Below are positions 10,487-40,552 of a stretch of DNA of 64,000 nt, piece by piece. The position numbers and the translations under genes are program-made. Where the stretch lies: NCBI GenBank assembly GCA_009838735.1, contig VXQZ01000031.1:1207-65206 (forward strand), in the 5' to 3' direction. Under the pieces are notes generated by a model. It had not been told where the DNA came from. It worked only from the letters and a program-made list of their open reading frames with translations, and did not search any database. Source of the DNA: Chloroflexota bacterium. GTDB taxonomy: Bacteria > Chloroflexota > Dehalococcoidia > Bin125. How positions within the stretch are numbered: position 1 is the stretch's first letter; each line of letters opens with the position of its first letter.

Positions 10487-12748
10487 TTGAAGAATGGCTT
10501 GTCGGTTGGGGGTGCTGCGGTGACCAAATCGGCCGTCAAATCTGATACCGCCAAGCGCAAGACCAGCGCGACATCGACGGGTAAGCGAGTCTCGGCACTG
10601 GCCATTCCCGCCTGGTTGCCGCTGGGCGGCATCCTGCTTGTCTCCGGCGCCGAGACCGTCCGCGTGACCGGCGCGCACCGCGAACTCTTCTTCAACATCG
10701 ATCACTTCTGGGTGCTCTACATGCTGCTCCCGTTCGTGATCGGGATCATCATCTACGGACTGGTCCGACGCTCTCGCGTCTGGCGACTGGGCAAGCCAAC
10801 AGCATTGCTCAAGGGAAACTTTGACAACCTGCCCGTCAGGCTCGGCAGATTGATCAAGGGTGGCGGCGGCACCGAGCGCGTCCTCCGCGACCCCTACTCG
10901 GGCGTCATGCACCTCTGCATCATGACCTCGATGATCGTCCTGTTCCTCGTCACGGCGCTGTTGGCCATCGACGACTACATCCCCGTCGACATCCTCGTTG
11001 GACCGCGGTACCTCGGGTACTCGCTCGTGGCCGACCTCTTCGGCCTCGTCGGCATCATTGGCGTCGCGATGGCGGTTGCTCATCGCTGGGTCAGGCCGCG
11101 TACTGCCTGGCTGCCGACCTGGGAAGACTGGCTGATCCTCGGCGGTCTCGGGATGCTCCTGGTCACCGGCTTCATCGTCGAGGGCCTGCGCATCCACACT
11201 TCCGAAATTAACGTCAACCCCGAATGGTCCTACTGGTCGCCGGTCGGCTACATCGTGGCCCTGATGTTCTCCGGGGTGAAGATCTCCGCCGCGCTCGACA
11301 TCCACACCACGTTCTGGTGGATCCACATGGTCGGCGCGCTCTCCTGGATCACCCTGCTCGGCTACTCCAAGCTCAACCACCTGGTGCTGGCGCCGGCCAA
11401 CGCGTTCCTCAAGCGCACGTCCGCGCCGGGCAAGCTCGACATGATCGTGAACATCGAGGAACAGGAGCACTTCGGCGTCTCCCAACTCGAGCACTTCACG
11501 ATGAAGCAGATCTTCGAGCTCGATGTCTGCGTGCGCTGTGGCCGCTGTACCGACAACTGCCCTGCCGACATCGCCGGCCAGCCGCTCTCGCCCATGCACA
11601 TCATCCAGGATCTCAAGTCGTATGCCACCGCCGTCGGCGAGCAAAAGGTCGCCAACCTCGTCCAGGGCAACGATCTCAACTTCGGCCTCGACGACGAGAC
11701 TCCCATGGTTGGCGGCGTCATTCGCGATGAGTCGCTCTGGGCCTGCCGCACCTGCGGCGCCTGCGTCGAGGCCTGCCCCGTCTTCATTGAGCACGTGCCA
11801 ACGATCGTCGACATGCGCCGCTCCCTGGTCATGGAAGAGGCCCGCATGCCCGACACCGTCCAGGGCACACTGGAGACGCTCGAACGTCAGGGCCACCCCT
11901 GGCGCGGCACGCCGTACACTCGCGACTCCTGGATGGAAGGCATCGAGGATCAGGTCCCAGAGTGGACCGGCGAGCAGGACTATCTCTACTTCGTCGGCTG
12001 CACCGGCGCCTTCGTCGACCGCGCGCAGGAGATCACCCGCTCCGTCGTCTCACTGATGCGCGAGGCTGATGTCTCCTTCGGCGTGATCAAGGGAATGGAA
12101 TCCTGCAACGGCGACCCGGCCCGCCGGCTGGGCCACGAGTACCTCTACCAGATCCTCGCCGAGGGCCTGATCGAGTTGTTCAATGAAACCGGCGTCAATG
12201 ATGAGCAGAAAACGGTCATCACGCACTGCCCGCACTGCTTCAACACGTTCCTCAACGAGTATCCGGACATGGGCGCCAAGTTCCAGGTGATCCACCACAC
12301 CCAGCTACTGGAGCAACTCGTCAATGAAGGCCGCTTGGTGCCCAACGCGGAGGTCCCCGAGCAAACCATCACCTACCACGACAGCTGCTACCTCGGACGC
12401 CACAATGACATCTTTGAGGCCCCGCGCCGGATCCTCGAGCAGGTGCCGAACGTCACCCTGATCGAGATGCCCCGCAACCGAGAGCAGGGCCTCTGCTGCG
12501 GCGCTGGCGGCGGCAACATGTGGATGGAAGAGCAAGGCAAGAGCCGGGTCAACGAGGTCCGGGTCGAGGAAGCCGTCGCCACCGGCGCCGACTCCGCCTG
12601 CACCGCCTGTCCCTTCTGCATCCAGATGTTCGATTCCGGCATCGGAACCGTGCAACTCGATGTTGAGGACGACGACAAGCTCAAAGTCCTCGACGTCGCT
12701 GAACTGCTGCAAGCGGCGGCCGTTTCCGACAGGCAACATGGTGTCTAG
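10487..12748 (+). CDS. membrane-bound Fe-S oxidoreductase, EtfD-like (NarI/HdrE-like cytochrome-b domain fused to HdrD/GlpC-like 2x[4Fe-4S] plus two CCG domains)
   Basis: The N-terminal roughly 330 aa carry multiple TM helices with conserved His. Two ferredoxin motifs follow (CVRCGRCTDNCP and CRTCGACVEACP), then two Cys-rich CCG-type motifs (CPHCFN and CCGAGGG). It sits immediately upstream of etfB-etfA, as in mycobacterial EtfD (Rv0338c-type) loci. Confidence 0.8.
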   Translation: MKNGLSVGGAAVTKSAVKSDTAKRKTSATSTGKRVSALAIPAWLPLGGILLVSGAETVRVTGAHRELFFNIDHFWVLYMLLPFVIGIIIYGLVRRSRVWRLGKPTALLKGNFDNLPVRLGRLIKGGGGTERVLRDPYSGVMHLCIMTSMIVLFLVTALLAIDDYIPVDILVGPRYLGYSLVADLFGLVGIIGVAMAVAHRWVRPRTAWLPTWEDWLILGGLGMLLVTGFIVEGLRIHTSEINVNPEWSYWSPVGYIVALMFSGVKISAALDIHTTFWWIHMVGALSWITLLGYSKLNHLVLAPANAFLKRTSAPGKLDMIVNIEEQEHFGVSQLEHFTMKQIFELDVCVRCGRCTDNCPADIAGQPLSPMHIIQDLKSYATAVGEQKVANLVQGNDLNFGLDDETPMVGGVIRDESLWACRTCGACVEACPVFIEHVPTIVDMRRSLVMEEARMPDTVQGTLETLERQGHPWRGTPYTRDSWMEGIEDQVPEWTGEQDYLYFVGCTGAFVDRAQEITRSVVSLMREADVSFGVIKGMESCNGDPARRLGHEYLYQILAEGLIELFNETGVNDEQKTVITHCPHCFNTFLNEYPDMGAKFQVIHHTQLLEQLVNEGRLVPNAEVPEQTITYHDSCYLGRHNDIFEAPRRILEQVPNVTLIEMPRNREQGLCCGAGGGNMWMEEQGKSRVNEVRVEEAVATGADSACTACPFCIQMFDSGIGTVQLDVEDDDKLKVLDVAELLQAAAVSDRQHGV

Positions 12749-32329: not shown

Positions 32330-34012
32330 ATGACCTCGCAGAACCACCTCCGCGAACGCTCCAGCGTCCTCGTCGACGGCCCCAGTCGCGCCGCCGCCCG
32401 ATCTCAGTTGTACTCCGTCGGTTTCGACGACGAGGCCCTTGCCAAACCGTTGGTCATGGTCGCCCATAACTGGATCGGCACCATGCCCTGCAATTTCTCC
32501 CACCGCGAGCTCGCGCAGGACGTCATGCGCGGCATCCGCGAGGCCGGCGGCACCCCGATGGAAGTCAATACCGTCTCCATCTCCGATGGCATCACAATGG
32601 GCACTGAAGGCATGAAGGCCTCGCTCATTTCCCGCGAGATCATCACCGACTCAATCGAGCTCTGCGCCGTCGGTTACGCCTTCGACGCCGCCGTCGTCAT
32701 CTGCGGCTGCGACAAGACCATCCCCGCCGCCGCCATGGCCATGGCGCGGATTAACATCCCTTCGGTGGCGCTCTACTCCGGCTCCATCGCTCCCGGACGC
32801 CACCACGACGGCCGCGACCTCACGATCCAGGATGTCTTCGAAGCCGTTGGCCAGCACTCGGCCGGCACCATCGACGACGATGAACTCCACCAGGTCGCGC
32901 TCAACGCCTGTCCTGGCGCCGGAGCCTGCGGCGCCCAGTACACCGCCAACACCATGGCCACCACGCTCGAGTTCCTCGGCCTCTCGCCGATGGGCTCGGC
33001 CACCGTCGGCGCCACCGACCCGCGCAAGCACAACGTCGGCGAGGCCGCCGGACAGCTCGTCATGGACGTCCTCCGCCGCGGCGTCAAGCCGCGCGACATC
33101 CTCACCCGCGAAGCGTTCGAGAACGGCATCGCCTGCGCCGCGTCCACCGGCGGCTCGACCAACGTTGTGCTTCACCTGCTCGCCCTCGCCCGCGAGGCCG
33201 GCGTCGAACTCAGCATCGACGATTTCGACGAAATCTCGGAGCGCACCCCGTTAATCGGAGACCTCCGACCCGGCGGCCGCTATGTCGCGCTCGACATGGA
33301 CCGCGCCGGCGGTACCCCGCTGCTGGCCAGGCGACTGCTCGAGGGCGGCAAGCTCCACGGCGACGCCACGACCGTCACCGGACAGACCATCGCCGAAGCC
33401 GCCGCCGATGCCCAGGAGACGCCCGGCCAGGACGTCATCCTGCCCGTCGATCAGGCGCTCAAGGAGACCGGCGGCCTCGTCATTCTCAAGGGCTCGCTCG
33501 CCCCGGATGGCTGCGTCGTCAAGGTTGCCGGCTACGAGCGACAGCTCCAGACCGGCACGGCCCGGGTCTTCGAGCGCGAAGAAGACGCCATGGACGCCGT
33601 CACCAGCAACCAGATCAACGCCGGCGACATCGTCGTCATCCGCTACGAGGGCCCCAAGGGCGGCCCGGGCATGCGCGAGATGCTCGGTGTCACCGCCGCC
33701 ATCGTCGGAGCCGGCTTGGGAGAGTCAGTCGCTCTGCTTACCGACGGCCGCTTCTCCGGAGCCACAAGAGGCCTGATGGCCGGCCACGTCGCCCCCGAAG
33801 CCTACGTCGGAGGCCCCATCGCCCTGGTCGAAGAAGGGGACCAGATCACCCTCGACATCGCCAACCGAGAACTCAACCTGGACGTCGACGAAGCCGAACT
33901 CGAAAGACGCCGAGCCAACTGGTCCCCCCGCCCCGCCAACTACGAAAACGGAGTCTTCGCCAAGTACGCCACCCTCGTCTCCGGAGCCGAACGCGGCGCC
34001 GTCACCAGCTAG
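32330..34012 (+). CDS. ilvD: dihydroxy-acid dehydratase
   Basis: IlvD/EDD family motifs ([11 protein letters not shown]... and the [2Fe-2S] Cys region), 560 aa. Confidence 0.9.
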
Positions 34013-34025
34013 CTAGGAGAGAAAA

Positions 34026-35465
34026 GTGGTCCTCATAAGGCAGGTCACTCTAGAGAACTTTCGCTGCTTTCAGGAGAAGCAGAGCGTTAACCTTGCGCCG
34101 TTAACTCTCTTGATCGGAGAAAACAGTACGGGAAAGACATCGTTTCTTGCCCTCCTTCGGGCTTTGTCAGAATTCGTGTTTGCAGGAAGAGCCCCTAACT
34201 TTCGTGAACCGTTTGATCTCGGTAGCTTTGAGCAAGTAGCCCACTATCGAGGGGGCTCGGCTACTCGAAACAGGTCATTTCGATTGGGCCTTGAGGCCAA
34301 GGCGAGCGGTGCAGTCTTCCCATTAGTAAGTGAGTCGGAACAGGATTTTGAAGTCCAAGTAGACATCACGTTTGAACGAGATTCGCGAGGGAGTGAGCCG
34401 ACTCCTGTTGAGCAGCAGATTGCTGTTGGAGAGTCTTGGCTGCATGAGCGAACTGCTACGAGAGATCGTGGGTACGATCTTCGCATCGGAACCGAAAGGG
34501 GCACTTGGAAGCTTTCGGGAGAAGCCGGAGAGGGACATCCGAACAATCTTGGAGCCTTTCGATTCTATTCGATGCCAAGGGCACTGCAGGATGCTCTTCC
34601 TGGTGACGAGACAGACATGCCTCGCCTTGTTCCCGTGGGGCAGTCGTCCGATTTTGACGATGTGGACCGGAAGGAAATCAACATCCTGGCTCGATTTGGG
34701 ATCTATAATCCGCAATTGTTGTACTCCACTTTCGCGGGCTTTGCACAGAGTCAAGTCTTTGCCAGTGGCCCAGTGCAGTCCCGGCCCCAAAGGACCTACG
34801 AGCCAGGTACGTGGGAGCGCGAGCCGCATGGCAATCACGTGCCTAGGAGATTCGCGGAGATGTCACTGTTCCAGCCTGACGAGTGGAGAGCGATCAAAAC
34901 GCAGTTGGAGACGTTCGGCAGAGCGTCGGGCCTATTCGATGAGATTCGCATCCAGCCCATGATGCCGTCAAGGAGTCGGCGAGCTACTGGAAGCGATCCA
35001 TTCCAACTTCAGGTTCGAAAAGGCTCGGGACGATTCAAGGGCATTCATCGCAACATCATAGACGTCGGCTATGGTGTCAGCCAAGTTCTTCCGATCTTGT
35101 CCGAAGTTGTGGCGGCGTCGGAACCTACAGACCTGTTTCTCTGTCAGCAGCCGGAAGTCCATTTGCATCCATCAGCGCAGGCTGAGTTAGGGTCGCTCTT
35201 CTGCGCTGTAGCGTCTGCAGACTTCCAAGTAGTGGTCGAAACCCACAGTGACCACCTATTGGACCGAATTCGCATGGACGTACGGGATGAGAGAACGGGG
35301 TTGTCGTCTAGCGATGTTCGGATTCTCTATTTCGAGAGGCGTGGATTGGATGTGAAAATTCACGAACTGACGTGGGACGAACACGGAAACATTGAGAACG
35401 CACCATCCAGTTACCGAAGATTTTTTCTGGAGGAGGTGGAGAGGTCAATATGGCCCCCCGAGTAG
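34026..35465 (+). CDS. ABC/SMC-like ATPase of the AAA_15/AAA_21 type (OLD/PtuA/AriA-like ATPase without a fused nuclease)
   Basis: N-terminal Walker A (LLIGENSTGKTSFL) right after a beta-hairpin start (IRQVTLENFRCF). C-terminal signature-like (VGYGVSQVLPIL), Walker-B-region (DLFLCQQPEVHLHP) and H-loop (VVETHSDHLL) elements. GTG start with an AGGAGAG RBS. GC is roughly 15 points below the flanks. Confidence 0.75.
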   Translation: MVLIRQVTLENFRCFQEKQSVNLAPLTLLIGENSTGKTSFLALLRALSEFVFAGRAPNFREPFDLGSFEQVAHYRGGSATRNRSFRLGLEAKASGAVFPLVSESEQDFEVQVDITFERDSRGSEPTPVEQQIAVGESWLHERTATRDRGYDLRIGTERGTWKLSGEAGEGHPNNLGAFRFYSMPRALQDALPGDETDMPRLVPVGQSSDFDDVDRKEINILARFGIYNPQLLYSTFAGFAQSQVFASGPVQSRPQRTYEPGTWEREPHGNHVPRRFAEMSLFQPDEWRAIKTQLETFGRASGLFDEIRIQPMMPSRSRRATGSDPFQLQVRKGSGRFKGIHRNIIDVGYGVSQVLPILSEVVAASEPTDLFLCQQPEVHLHPSAQAELGSLFCAVASADFQVVVETHSDHLLDRIRMDVRDERTGLSSSDVRILYFERRGLDVKIHELTWDEHGNIENAPSSYRRFFLEEVERSIWPPE

Positions 35466-35932
35466 GATGTGCAATTCTCGACGCTGACTGTGCGGCCGAA
35501 GTTTTCGGCCGGGATACGTCTGAAGCCGGTGAGGAGTTTCGACGTTGGGTTATTGGTGGGAGAGGGCGTTTGGTGTACGGTGCCGGTTTGAGAGAAGAAT
35601 TGAATGAGCTATCAGGATTTACCCAATGGGCGGCCTCTCGTCCTCCCAATCTGCGCTATTGTGGAGGCTCAGCGTTGAAAGTAGCGAAGGCGGATCTGGA
35701 CTCCCAACGATTGCCGAACGGTCCGATTAGGTCAAACGACACGCATGTCTTAGCAATCGCGAAGGTAAGCGGTGCAAGGCTGCTCTATACGAGGGACAAG
35801 AAGCTTCGATCTGACTTTGCTAACCAGAATGTGGTGTCCTCTCCGCAGGGCCAGTTGTACAATGAGGGAGCGAAAGATAAGTTCACTGCAGAACACCGTG
35901 TGCGATTGCTGCACGCGGAGCCGTGTGACTAG
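35450..35932 (+). CDS. PIN-domain (VapC-like) nuclease, 160 aa, translationally coupled to the upstream ATPase
   Basis: N-terminal AILDAD strand, a central acidic helix (LREELNE) and the classic C-terminal PIN motif DTHVLAIAKVSGARLLYTRDKKLRSDF. The ATG overlaps the ATPase stop by 16 nt. Low GC, like the ATPase gene. Confidence 0.65.
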   Translation: MAPRVGCAILDADCAAEVFGRDTSEAGEEFRRWVIGGRGRLVYGAGLREELNELSGFTQWAASRPPNLRYCGGSALKVAKADLDSQRLPNGPIRSNDTHVLAIAKVSGARLLYTRDKKLRSDFANQNVVSSPQGQLYNEGAKDKFTAEHRVRLLHAEPCD

Positions 35933-35940
35933 CATGTCAG

Positions 35941-36534
35941 TCACCAACCCCGTCGTCGCCGTCGTCGCCGCCGCCGCCCACCCGAACTCGACGCCGACGC
36001 CTTCAACATCGCGACCAACACCGCACCGACCAACTTGAACACACCGCCAATCAGAATCACCCACGGGGACTCCGCCGCCTCGCGACGTTGCCGCTGCTCG
36101 GCACGCTTCGCCCGTCGATGATCCCACGGCTTGACAGATCCCTGCTGTCCCCAGACCCCCGCCCGCTCGCGCCTGGCATAGCGCTCGGAGTCGTCGAAGC
36201 CAAGCTCCGCCCCGCCGTACTCCCGGTACCAGTACGCCAGCCCCGACTCCACCATCGCGTGATTGGCTGAATCCCGAACCGATCCGCCCTCTGGATACAG
36301 AACGCCAACCAGCCGCTGATAACGATCGACATCCACTACCCGCAACCGCCACTCTCGACGACTCCGAACCACCCGTCGTAAATGGTCATGCGAATCACGC
36401 CCCGCCCTCTGATCCTTCTCCCGCGCGTCGATGCCGTACATCCGCACCGAATACTCGTCCCCGTCGGGCAGTTGCACCCTGACCGAGTCGCCGTCAATCA
36501 CTCGCACCACGTGGACCGCATAGTCATCAGCCAT
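35941..36534 (-). CDS. thermonuclease (SNase-like) family protein with C-terminal TM anchor and poly-Arg tail
   Basis: SNase motifs (VIDGDSVRV...VRMYGIDAREKDQ...GRDS). The C-terminal hydrophobic helix (VILIGGVFKLVGAVLVAML) is followed by GGRRRRRRRRRGW. Confidence 0.65.
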   Translation of the reverse strand: MADDYAVHVVRVIDGDSVRVQLPDGDEYSVRMYGIDAREKDQRAGRDSHDHLRRVVRSRREWRLRVVDVDRYQRLVGVLYPEGGSVRDSANHAMVESGLAYWYREYGGAELGFDDSERYARRERAGVWGQQGSVKPWDHRRAKRAEQRQRREAAESPWVILIGGVFKLVGAVLVAMLKASASSSGGRRRRRRRRRGW

Positions 36535-39148: not shown

Positions 39149-39937
39149 ATGGCCGATGAAGTCCTGTTTGATGTGTCCGAGCGAGTCGCCACGATCACCC
39201 TCAATCGCCCCGACAAAATGAACACGATCAACAGCGCCCTCGGCTCTCAGTTGATCGAGTCGCTGGTCGAAGTCCGCAACAACGACGAGATCCGCTCGGC
39301 GGTCATCATAGGAGCCGGCGACCGCGCCTTCTGCGCCGGCGCCGATCTCACCCAGGGTGACGGACCCGCCGCCTCCGCCGGACCCGCAGGCCATTTCCCA
39401 ACCAACGCCGGCGACCGCTTCGACGAGTTCGACGCCAAGAAGCCGCTGATCGCCGCGATCAATGGCCACGCCCTCGGCGGCGGCTTCGAGATCGCCCTCG
39501 TCTGCGACCTGCGCATCGGCGCCGAGAACGCCCGCGCCCGCCTCGGCCTCCCCGAGATCACGCTCGGCTTCTTCCCGCTCGCCGGCGGACCGATGCGCCT
39601 CCCCCGCGCCATCCCCCAGGCCTACGCCAACGAGATGCTCTACCTCGGCCGCCGCCTCAGCATGGAGGAAGCGCTCCAATGGGGCGTCATCTCCCGCCTC
39701 GTCCCCCAGGACCAGCTCCTCCCAACCGCCCAGGAGATGGCAGCCCAGGTCGCCGGCTACGCACCCATCGCCGTCCGCGCCATGAAAGAACTGATCAACG
39801 CCCAGGGAGACATGACCCTCGCCCAGGCCAACCGCTTCGGTGGCTCCCTCCGCTGGATCGTCGGTCAAACAGCCGACTCCAAAGAAGGCCCCCGAGCCTT
39901 CGCCGAAGGCCGCCAACCCGAGTTCAAGGGCGAATGA
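39149..39937 (+). CDS. enoyl-CoA hydratase/isomerase family protein
   Basis: ITLNRPDKMN, FCAGADL, GHALGGGFEIALVCDLRIG and C-terminal FAEGRQPEFKG. Confidence 0.85.
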   Translation: MADEVLFDVSERVATITLNRPDKMNTINSALGSQLIESLVEVRNNDEIRSAVIIGAGDRAFCAGADLTQGDGPAASAGPAGHFPTNAGDRFDEFDAKKPLIAAINGHALGGGFEIALVCDLRIGAENARARLGLPEITLGFFPLAGGPMRLPRAIPQAYANEMLYLGRRLSMEEALQWGVISRLVPQDQLLPTAQEMAAQVAGYAPIAVRAMKELINAQGDMTLAQANRFGGSLRWIVGQTADSKEGPRAFAEGRQPEFKGE

Positions 39938-39956
39938 TCACGACAGGACCCGTCCC

Positions 39957-40547
39957 ATGAGAAGCCAGGAATCGCTCAACGAACTCCGCTACCTCCGACG
40001 CATCCAGGAGGACGTCGAGGACCAGTGGCGCGCCCGACAACCCGACCTCGACCGTCTGCACCGCCTCATGGCCCTGCTCTACACCAGCCACGGACTCGTC
40101 TGGAAATCGCACGGCTGCTCCGGCGCCGGCGAGCATGATCCTTACGCCGGTGAGATCGTCGAACTCGCCCTGCGCATTGAAGCGTCATCCCAACGAGGCG
40201 CGCATCGCGCCTTCAACCTGTTCGAGCAGTGGCGCTGCGAGGCCTGTAGCTGGAACTGCAACGCGCTCTACACGCTCTGGGCCACGACGGCCGAACCAGC
40301 CGCCGAGTTTCAGCCGCTCGACGCCATCGACGACCACCGCCTGATGCACGAACGAACCAATCAGGGACTCGATCAGCCCCTCCCCGAAGCCCTCGACATC
40401 CGCAACAACGCCGCCAGCATCCGCCTCGAAGCCAACACCCAAATCGCCGACCGACTCGCCCACTGGACCCACGCAGGCCTCCTCAGCGACAACGTCGACG
40501 AGCGTTACCAGACTGAACTCACCGAACCAGCCGCCGTACCAGCCTGA
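39957..40547 (+). CDS. hypothetical protein with Cys/His cluster
   Basis: ORF with host-like codon usage. HGCSGAGEH and CEACSWNC motifs. The track start at 39840 overlaps the crotonase; M at 39957 is preferred. Confidence 0.45.
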   Translation: MRSQESLNELRYLRRIQEDVEDQWRARQPDLDRLHRLMALLYTSHGLVWKSHGCSGAGEHDPYAGEIVELALRIEASSQRGAHRAFNLFEQWRCEACSWNCNALYTLWATTAEPAAEFQPLDAIDDHRLMHERTNQGLDQPLPEALDIRNNAASIRLEANTQIADRLAHWTHAGLLSDNVDERYQTELTEPAAVPA

Positions 40548-40552
40548 TTGCC

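Follow-up and report, generated by a model that had tools for sequence, protein, structure and literature searches.

Two validated defence systems resemble the locus described here most closely. HEC-03 (Hma-embedded candidate 03) was identified in Pseudomonas cichorii (WP_025259138.1 and WP_025259137.1) and consists of two genes that encode a DUF3696 ABC ATPase and a VapC-like PIN protein; it protects against phages, needs both genes for this and is toxic on induction (Payne et al., bioRxiv 10.1101/2024.01.29.577857). The two HEC-03 genes (322707-324092 and 324079-324552) overlap by 14 nt. Menshen (NsnABC) is a validated system of three genes (Millman et al. 2022; Li et al. NAR 2025, PMC12065111). 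The NsnC protein opens with a PIN-like domain, which has been modelled with AF3 as docking on the DUF3696 of the ATPase NsnB (PMC12065111).

A gene cluster containing an ATPase gene and a PIN gene (ORF1 and ORF2) lies between ilvD and a convergent SNase-like gene in the window, the whole 64-kb stretch of DNA that was analysed. The source genome of this insert belongs to a marine member of the Dehalococcoidia. The segment 34013-35940 is filled by the two genes, which lie on the same strand with a 16-nt overlap of the ORF1 stop and the ORF2 start, exactly as the first-pass annotation had described them, and holds no third ORF. The features of the locus are as follows.

32330-34012, plus strand: ilvD, the upstream neighbour of the cassette
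34013-34025, plus strand: left junction, a 13-nt spacer that follows the ilvD stop and carries an AGGAG ribosome-binding site
34026-35465, plus strand: ORF1, 479 aa, ABC-type ATPase of the NsnB / HEC-03 (DUF3696) clade, with a GTG start and AGGAG 6 nt upstream
34116-34142, plus strand: Walker A of ORF1, GENSTGKTS (K37), its conservation scored in 46 homologues
34161-34775, plus strand: Insert-1 of ORF1 (aa 46-250), beta-rich and hypervariable by allele comparison, a proposed trigger-sensing surface
35052-35093, plus strand: signature-motif region NIIDVGYGVSQVLP of ORF1, a GxG variant as described for NsnB
35133-35171, plus strand: Walker B / D-loop LFLCQQPEVHLHP of ORF1, with Q374-Q375 in place of the canonical Asp-Glu dyad
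35235-35255, plus strand: H-loop (switch) VETHSDH of ORF1
35304-35462, plus strand: DUF3696-like C-terminal tail of ORF1, two strands and a helix, a proposed PIN docking site
35450-35932, plus strand: ORF2, 160 aa, stand-alone VapC-like PIN domain protein with an ATG start, a proposed RNase effector
35933-35940, no strand: right junction, 8 nt between the PIN stop and the stop of the convergent core gene
35941-36534, minus strand: core SNase-like gene, the downstream neighbour of the cassette

The start of ORF2 is placed at the ATG at 35450, since a later start giving the classic 4-nt overlap would fall on codon 5, which is GTA and not a start codon. The cassette has a GC content of 0.536, compared with a 64-kb mean of 0.641 (sd 0.019, z = -5.6), which bears out its earlier description as a low-GC island. 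No other 1.9-kb stretch of the window has as low a GC content (runner-up 0.616), and the GC3 values of ORF1 and ORF2 are 0.56 and 0.55, respectively, whereas those of the flanking genes are 0.72-0.86. A scan in and around the cassette revealed no terminator-like site and, on the plus strand, no promoter-like site. The tRNA and Rfam scans of the whole 64-kb window were empty, so there is no tRNA-linked integration site, and no direct repeats indicative of target-site duplication are visible at either junction.

ORF1 is matched by the Pfam families AAA_15 (3e-23) and AAA_21 (6.5e-17). Among the PADLOC models, the best match is NsnB (3.2e-48, 163 bits), followed by PDC-M55A (9e-34) and HEC-03B (3.3e-29, 100 bits). 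The AriA, GajA, PtuA and Old models match weakly (E 1e-10 to 1e-25), far behind NsnB, and the sequence likeness of ORF1 to the ATPases of PARIS, Septu and Gabija is confined to the Walker A and signature regions. The first-pass annotation had compared gene 1 to the ATPases of OLD, GajA, PtuA and AriA; its assignment to the AAA_15/AAA_21 ABC-type ATPases of a defence-associated clade stands, but the closest PADLOC model is Menshen NsnB and not one of those four. PDC-M55 is a candidate of three genes and was therefore ruled out as an identification of the pair, and NCBIfam returned only partial N-terminal matches (MADS3, PtuA and RecF) far under their cut-offs. An AF2 model of ORF1 (pLDDT 85.6, pTM 0.88) finds its best Foldseek matches in the SMC head, Rad50, PtuA and JetC.

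Residue conservation in ORF1 was scored over 46 homologues, and residues kept in at least 90% of them are termed nearly invariant. In Walker A, every homologue retains G31, N33, S34, G36, K37, T38 and S39, while E32 and T35 are nearly invariant; K37 is the Walker A lysine, as had been proposed. Q374, Q375, P376, E377, H379, L380, H381 and P382 of the Walker B region and E405, T406, H407, S408 and D409 of the H-loop are invariant as well. Insert-1 contains beta strands at E84-166 in the AF2 model. The C-terminal tail scores 18.1 bits on Pfam DUF3696, under the cut-off of 22, and a DUF3696 match is obtained for 35 of the 46 family members (best 7e-7). By analogy with the AF3 models of NsnB and NsnC (PMC12065111), this tail is proposed to be the docking site of the PIN protein. 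It is the part of the ATPase with which the PIN co-varies most strongly (Mantel r 0.65, partial r 0.56), a correlation that could also stem from DNA linkage in a mosaic locus instead of docking.

ORF2 has been confirmed as a stand-alone PIN protein, with its acidic residues kept. The conserved acidic residues are D11, E50, D97 and D116; the motifs AILDAD and NDTHVLAIAKVSGARLLYTRDKKL hold D11, D97 (family-invariant) and D116 (at least 90%). C7, H99, D122 and C159 are further invariant residues that are specific to the ORF2 family. The closest structural likeness of ORF2 is to VapC toxins, and relatives of ORF2 carry the source name “type II toxin-antitoxin system VapC family toxin”. ORF2 is proposed to be a catalytically competent VapC-like PIN ribonuclease. 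Its family is large: clustering at 90% identity yields more than 2,400 clusters, and clustering at 50% leaves 1,416 representatives; an earlier reading as a rare family, from 13 clusters found by a word-indexed search, was overturned by an exhaustive profile search. PADLOC offers no usable model for the family. No PADLOC model matches ORF2 at E<=1, and only one of 65 family members matches a model, HEC-03A, at 0.03. A PDB sequence search with the ORF2 profile gave marginal DUF4411 matches (E about 0.5), and the single NCBIfam match, PseF (0.0079), is spurious.

The pairing of an AAA_15 ATPase with a PIN nuclease had been put forward as a candidate undescribed system. That claim does not hold, because the validated HEC-03 has the same gene order (ATPase then PIN on the same strand), similar sizes (461 and 157 aa, compared with 479 and 160 aa) and a similar stop/start overlap (14 nt, compared with 16 nt), and its ATPase is homologous to ORF1. 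BLASTP aligns the two ATPases with 33% identity over aa 287-422, the catalytic C-half (E 4e-19), and with 30% identity at the N-terminus. Both are of the DUF3696 type and have in common the GxG signature (DVGFGVSQVLP in HEC-03), the xQPE-HLHP Walker B region and the [ST]HS[DE]H H-loop. They differ in Walker B, which reads QQPE in ORF1 and EQPE in HEC-03, and the NsnB model of PADLOC gives ORF1 a higher score than its HEC-03 model does. The two PIN proteins share the VapC-like fold and a C-terminal Cys, and their acidic residues occupy the same four columns, but they are not detectably of the same sequence family: BLASTP gives an E of 0.004 over 30 residues, hhalign a probability of 24%, and the HEC-03 PIN about 10 bits against an HMM built from the ORF2 family. 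The HEC-03 PIN model of PADLOC does not match ORF2, and since no model in PADLOC-DB v2 does, these models could not call the locus HEC-03. The cassette is most likely an anti-phage system in the HEC-03 layout, with a PIN of a different, unannotated family, and not an undescribed kind of system.

PARIS (AriA/AriB), Septu (PtuA/PtuB) and Gabija (GajA) resemble the pair in that an oligomerising ABC ATPase controls a separate or fused nuclease effector. Their effectors, however, are TOPRIM (AriB, GajA) or HNH (PtuB) proteins, whereas ORF2 is a PIN protein, and the pair is therefore not a member of PARIS, Septu, Gabija or OLD. The clade, the inserts and the C-terminal domain of the PARIS, Septu and Gabija ATPases are also unlike those of ORF1.

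The ATPase gene is directly followed by the PIN gene in 12 Dehalococcoidia loci and in nine independent loci of other lineages, which were sampled from both genes. Outside the Dehalococcoidia slot, the neighbours of the pair are entirely different and do not include ilvD. One pair (L050) is embedded between HmaB and HmaC, that is, inside an Hma system as HEC-03 is, another (L041) adjoins HEC-01 and HsdR, and a third (L043) adjoins a CBASS-type TIR effector, a Type III MTase and a SIR2 pAgo partner. The association with defence islands that had been suggested for the query is thus borne out elsewhere. The query locus itself and four others (L039, L042, L047 and L049) have housekeeping neighbours and no defence island. 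A search of viral contigs with the ORF2 alignment gave 13 pattern matches, of which none was confirmed, and tblastn of a plasmid collection with ORF2 gave no match.

We infer a role in defence from the architecture, the context and the homology of one of the two proteins, the ATPase. The cassette is probably a mobile two-gene anti-phage system of HEC-03 architecture. The strongest competing explanation, which is nevertheless unlikely, is a toxin-antitoxin or addiction module, in which a toxin, the PIN, would be paired with the ATPase as a large and unconventional antitoxin or chaperone, serving locus stability or stress with no dedicated anti-phage role. The structural likeness of ORF2 to VapC toxins and the naming of its relatives agree with such a module, as do the toxicity of HEC-03 on induction, the many copies among housekeeping genes and the Pfam description of AAA_21 as “putative AbiEii toxin, Type IV TA system”. 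ORF2 shares with VapBC the VapC PIN fold and a catalytic tetrad of four acidic residues. A small DNA-binding antitoxin of the VapB kind (AbrB, RHH or MazE type) is, however, present in none of the loci examined, and the upstream position is taken in the query by the 479-aa ABC ATPase. Partners of 440-480 aa in which Walker A and the H-loop are intact and the insert is hypervariable show the pattern of a sensor ATPase, and HEC-03, with its homologous architecture, defends against phages and needs both genes to do so. The toxin-antitoxin and abortive-defence readings overlap and are not mutually exclusive.

Several traits connect the pair to Menshen. NsnB and ORF1 have in common the DUF3696 tail, the GxG signature, an Arg-rich Q-loop region and a Walker B that lacks the catalytic Glu, although this motif is EN in NsnB and QQ in ORF1. 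In both loci the gene directly downstream of the ATPase begins with a PIN fold, and both show extreme polymorphism and module shuffling among close genomes. The hypervariable parts differ, being Insert-1 of the ATPase in ORF1 and NsnA-N and NsnC in Menshen. The Menshen gene upstream of the ATPase, NsnA (ParB-DUF262 and ParBDB), is absent and ilvD precedes ORF1 instead. No related locus examined carries a DUF262 annotation, and a scan of the window for the DUF262 motif DGQQR gave a single string on the minus strand at 10969, which looks off-frame and has a low-complexity context. A decayed Menshen, in which NsnA and the C-terminal nuclease of NsnC were lost and NsnB remains with a functionless PIN-only stub, would accord with NsnB as the best PADLOC match of ORF1, with the signature and tail common to the two ATPases and with the PIN-like start of NsnC modelled on DUF3696. 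This explanation is very improbable. NsnC combines an inactive N-terminal PIN with a C-terminal toxin or nuclease, whereas ORF2 consists of the PIN only and its D-E-D-D residues are intact.

The ilvD/SNase slot is a recurrent site of polymorphism in this Dehalococcoidia lineage. It is occupied in 13 genomes (12 relatives and the query), always at the same position after ilvD, and empty in 13 related Dehalococcoidia species genomes. The latter include the closest relative, whose ilvD and SNase genes are 99% and 98% identical to those of the query, respectively. Relatives without the insert, for which a comparison of junctions had been suggested by the first-pass annotation, were therefore found. 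Resemblance to the empty-site genomes stops at the ilvD stop codon; the empty junctions have host-like GC and contain GC-rich hairpins, which are missing from the right junction of the cassette. The cassettes have a GC content of 0.51-0.54 across hosts with 0.53-0.64. The earlier claim of an acquired island is upheld in that the island was gained or lost, but its insertion was not a single event.

The flanking genes are 84-99% identical among the compared genomes, whereas the ATPases are only 42-54% identical. The PIN alleles are 32-98% identical to each other and 33-57% identical to ORF2. Among the slot alleles, the ATPase N-terminus is 85% and the C-half 60% identical; for Insert-1, the mean pairwise identity of 12 alleles from the same chromosomal slot is 29% (range 17-57%). 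Mosaic alleles occur, as in L022 and L023, whose PIN proteins are 98% identical and whose inserts are only 38% identical. The slot alleles differ among themselves as much as from copies in other phyla. A housekeeping accessory operon tied to ilvD and conserved in the lineage (e.g., for RNA processing or branched-chain amino-acid regulation) would explain the constant position in 13 genomes, the 13-nt spacer and the lack of a plus-strand promoter-like site of its own, but it is close to refuted by the absence of the pair from the 13 empty genomes, the divergence of the alleles, the occurrence of the pair elsewhere with other neighbours, and the standing of the cassette as the most GC-deviant segment of the window.

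In the anti-phage system that we favour, ORF2 is translationally coupled to ORF1. The cassette replaces the terminator hairpins of ilvD and would probably be transcribed by read-through from ilvD. An ATPase oligomer may bind the PIN effector in a physical complex, in which the C-terminal tails of the ATPase keep the effector inactive. Recognition of a phage-derived trigger would fall to the hypervariable Insert-1, and the complex may be switched by nucleotide binding instead of fast hydrolysis. Binding is proposed as the signal because the Walker B dyad is QQ in every member; the QQ dyad might also mean that the ATPase is inactive in some other way. The PIN RNase would then be freed or activated and would cut cellular or phage RNA (tRNA, rRNA or mRNA), upon which translation would halt and the infection would abort. 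Between ilvD and the SNase-like gene, alleles are gained, lost and recombined in a fixed slot.

The cassette does not amount to a novel type of immune mechanism. HEC-03 and Menshen, which are separate in the literature, are joined by one ATPase clade. Its members combine a GxG signature and a DUF3696 tail with a Walker B that lacks the catalytic Glu, and their partner protein always opens with a PIN fold. Environmental and symbiont defence inventories that use the PADLOC-DB v2 models probably undercount the PIN family, because it has no model there. The allelic series, with 13 occupied and 13 empty sites between flanks that are 84-99% identical, is a natural experiment, and it pinpoints Insert-1 as the fast-evolving surface of the ATPase, which is probably also the trigger-recognising one. 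More tentatively, the ORF1/ORF2 pairs could form a very large unannotated sister family of HEC-03, composed of an NsnB-clade ATPase and a catalytically active PIN, with sensing by Insert-1 and with ATP binding without hydrolysis as the signal, and this family may represent the ancestral state of Menshen. In such a scenario, an active PIN on DUF3696 would later have lost catalysis and become the “inPIN” adaptor of NsnC, and the C-terminal toxin and the NsnA DNA sensor would have been acquired to give Menshen.

A low-GC cassette was identified at window positions 34013-35940, between the stop codons of ilvD (34012) and a convergent SNase-like gene (35941). This interval contains only two substantial open reading frames on the same strand:

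34026-35465, + strand: ORF1, ABC-type ATPase gene encoding 479 aa, with a GTG start and AGGAG 6 nt upstream
35450-35932, + strand: ORF2, PIN gene encoding 160 aa, with an ATG start and GGAGGAGGTGGAGAGG upstream of the start

The two genes overlap by 16 nt, and a shorter, 4-nt overlap is not possible because codon 5 of ORF2 is GTA. The GC content of the cassette is 0.536, and the GC3 values of ORF1 (0.56) and ORF2 (0.55) compare with 0.72-0.86 in the adjoining genes. No other 1.9-kb stretch deviates as far from the mean GC content of the 64-kb window (0.641, sd 0.019; z = -5.6 for the cassette), and the next-lowest stretch of this length is at 0.616. The two-gene low-GC island with a 16-nt overlap described after ilvD by the first-pass annotation was thus borne out in every detail. 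No tRNA or tmRNA genes, and no Rfam families at the gathering threshold, were found across the 64-kb window.

ORF1 matches the Pfam families AAA_15 (3e-23) and AAA_21 (6.5e-17). DUF3696 is weak at aa 427-461 (18.1 bits, under the cut-off of 22) and is found in 35 of 46 family members. Of the PADLOC defence models, Menshen NsnB scores highest (3.2e-48, 163 bits), followed by PDC-M55A, HEC-03B, AriA, Old and GajA. The AF2 model of ORF1, built on a 46-sequence alignment (pLDDT 85.6, pTM 0.88), is closest among solved folds to SMC heads, Rad50, PtuA and JetC, which identifies the protein as an ABC-type ATPase; no solved structure exists among its close relatives. The nucleotide-binding motifs are intact, but Walker B carries a Gln-Gln pair. 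Across the 46 homologues, seven of the nine positions of Walker A (GENSTGKTS, K37) are strictly invariant and E32 and T35 are conserved in at least 90%, DVGYGVSQ stands in place of the signature motif, the H-loop is ETHSD, and the Walker B region (LLQQPEVHLHP) has the invariant Gln-Gln where the canonical Asp-Glu sits. NsnB has the same GxG signature and has also lost the catalytic Glu, with "EN" at that place (PMC12065111).

ORF2 by itself falls below the Pfam PIN threshold (16.3 bits, E 0.016). An exhaustive profile search recovered a family of 1,416 representatives at 50% identity (678 at E<=1e-10); among the 150 listed, nearly all are stand-alone proteins of 150-160 aa. A separate profile search at the 90% cluster level gave more than 2,400 clusters. 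Pfam PIN is passed by 49 of 65 diverse members, in which the invariant columns include C7, D11, E50, S95, D97, H99, D122 and C159, and D116 is conserved in at least 90%. In the confident AF2 model (pLDDT 87.9, pTM 0.84), four acidic residues match the PIN catalytic tetrad sites by predicted secondary structure: one follows β1, one lies in the helix after β2, one precedes helix 98-107 and one follows β4. ORF2 is therefore a VapC-like PIN protein that looks catalytically competent, in agreement with the earlier assignment of gene 2 as a PIN nuclease. Beyond the acidic tetrad, C7, H99 (an invariant His two residues past the third Asp) and C159, with codons at window 35468-35470, 35744-35746 and 35924-35926, could form a metal site or a disulfide.

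The slot between ilvD and the SNase-like gene was compared in about 30 species-level Dehalococcoidia (Chloroflexota) MAGs, many of sponge or marine origin, sampled via the flanking hydrolase. All share the order MFS, ilvD, slot, SNase-like, α/β-hydrolase, amidase. The slot is empty in 13 genomes, where the ilvD-to-hydrolase gap is 660-940 bp with a GC content of 0.63-0.68 and the SNase gene alone inside. These include the closest relative, L004 (ilvD 99%, MFS 96%, SNase 98%, amidase 98%). Two further loci (L015 and L017) have a reduced slot, also without the SNase gene, leaving a 17-bp gap. The low-GC ATPase-PIN pair fills the slot in the window and 12 other loci (gap GC 0.53-0.58), and the window's likeness to empty sites ends exactly at the ilvD stop codon. 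This presence and absence and the sharp boundary make a conserved core operon at host-like GC very unlikely. In one locus (L030, gap GC 0.59) the slot carries different cargo, a lower-GC gene for a second SNase-like protein of 292 aa with a long coiled-coil C-terminus (L030:8474-9352, - strand), and the site is therefore a variable hotspot that is not specific for the ATPase-PIN pair.

GC-rich palindromes (e.g., GAGCTCCCCCGGAGGGGGAGCTG and CTCTCCCCCCGCGAAGCGGGGGGAGATGCCGAAGGCAGAGGGGGGC) follow ilvD in empty sites (L004:9310-9380 and equivalents in L006, L009, L012 and L020). They recur in varying combinations across genomes, are missing from occupied sites, and resemble REP-like repeats or bidirectional terminators. 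A scan of the cassette and its surroundings turned up neither a promoter-like site on the + strand nor a terminator-like site. The cassette has displaced the hairpins seen after ilvD in empty sites, so it is likely transcribed by read-through from ilvD.

The core SNase-like gene (window 35941-36534, - strand; Pfam SNase 4.6e-11) encodes a hydrophobic segment followed by a terminal RRRRRRRRRGW; it is conserved at host GC in most relatives and missing from L001, L015 and L017. Sequence OZ219765.1 ("chromosome 2") holds the entire syntenic region twice, with the slot empty (L019) and occupied (L025), which reflects either a genuine duplication of a large region or an assembly that merged two strains. 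A second variable spot lies a few kb downstream, in the enoyl-CoA hydratase/CoA-transferase interval (window ~39900-40550), and carries an 874-aa N6_Mtase protein in L001 (12033-14657) and a 100-aa protein, a PIN protein and a 196-aa protein (VapBC-like) in L002 (12503-13863).

Between genomes, the flanking genes are 84-99% identical and the ATPases 42-54%; PIN identity is 33-57% to the window copy and 32-98% among Dehalococcoidia alleles. Across 12 Dehalococcoidia alleles, mean ATPase identity is 85% for the N-terminus and 60% for the C-terminal half, but only 29% (range 17-57%) for the β-rich Insert-1 (aa 46-250). Alleles of the same slot differ among themselves as much as from copies in other lineages, and they are mosaic: L022 and L023 are 98% identical in the PIN and 38% in the insert, and for L001 and L002 the values are 82% and 24%, respectively. 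Cassette GC stays at 0.51-0.54 across hosts of 0.53-0.64. This divergence, mosaicism and constant low GC are typical of an immune locus that diversifies and is exchanged horizontally, and the way in which the cassette is gained, lost and recombined is likewise defence-like.

Distant loci were sampled on long contigs from five PIN and four ATPase homologues used as seeds. In every one, the ATPase (446-468 aa) is directly followed by the PIN, and HMMs built from both families confirmed the pairing in all loci. The PIN is uncalled by gene callers in L047:5353-5817 and L048:5353-5817 and shortened in L050:5398-5847 (114 aa called vs 149 aa), so annotation-based censuses will undercount the pair. 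Its neighbours vary from locus to locus. Three contexts are clearly defence-related: the pair is embedded between HmaB (2.8e-119) and HmaC (5e-104) in L050, adjoins HsdR and HEC-01 A+B in L041, and adjoins a CBASS-type TIR effector, a Type III methyltransferase, HicAB and a SIR2 partner of short pAgo in L043. The remaining contexts are housekeeping genes. No DUF262 gene was found near the pair in the distant loci examined, and no copies of the pair in IMG/VR contigs or PLSDB plasmids.

Two known systems resemble the cassette. In Menshen (NsnABC), NsnB is an ABC ATPase with a DUF3696 tail, and AF3 models place the N-terminus of the effector NsnC, an inactive PIN ("inPIN"), between two such tails (Li et al., PMC12065111). 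The window ATPase belongs to the same clade as NsnB, but the pair fails two of the three defining features and is ruled out as a Menshen system, as NsnA is absent and the PIN is active-looking without a C-terminal toxin. Pairs without NsnA were beyond the reach of that survey because it was seeded on the NsnA DUF262 domain.

HEC-03 is a two-gene system of an ABC ATPase and a VapC-like PIN embedded in Hma systems; it reduces plaquing, requires both genes and is toxic upon induction (Payne et al., bioRxiv 10.1101/2024.01.29.577857). Table S2 of that preprint lists a 461-aa "DUF3696 domain-containing protein" and a 157-aa PIN, and their genes overlap by 14 nt. The window ATPase is 33% identical to that of HEC-03 over the catalytic C-terminal half (E 4e-19) and 30% at the N-terminus, and the motifs DVG[YF]GVSQVLP, xQPExHLHP and [ST]HS[DE]H are common to both. 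Between the PINs, sequence likeness is confined to the motif-3/4 region (E 0.004; hhalign probability 24%), and the HEC-03 PIN scores ~10 bits against the ORF2-family HMM, although its acidic residues occupy the same four columns and it shares the invariant C-terminal Cys. No PADLOC-DB v2 model recognises the ORF2 family, and therefore its models alone could not call the locus HEC-03. The HMM names of PDLC04147/PDLC04148 in that database are swapped relative to the preprint: the ATPase matches "HEC-03B" and a PIN matches "HEC-03A", whereas the preprint names the ATPase HEC-03A and the PIN HEC-03B.

Contrary to the first-pass annotation, an AAA_15-PIN pairing is thus already described. Architecture, context and homology lend good support to the defence reading, and the cassette has the HEC-03 architecture in a divergent form that combines an NsnB-like ATPase with a distinct, large PIN family. 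The NsnB-NsnC models, Septu and PARIS suggest by analogy that an ATPase oligomer holds the PIN inactive on its tails. Insert-1 would sense a phage product, the complex would be switched by ATP binding and not turnover, and the PIN would then cut RNA, aborting infection. In a mirror-tree comparison with PIN similarity, the ATPase tail gives r = 0.65 (partial 0.56 with the ATPase core controlled), the insert 0.45 (0.19) and the N-terminus 0.27 (0.17). This result is consistent with tail-PIN docking, but would equally arise from DNA linkage within a mosaic locus. The value of the cassette lies chiefly in the bridge that it forms between HEC-03 and Menshen, in its uncatalogued PIN family, and in a clean natural allelic series at one slot, which suggests that Insert-1 determines specificity.
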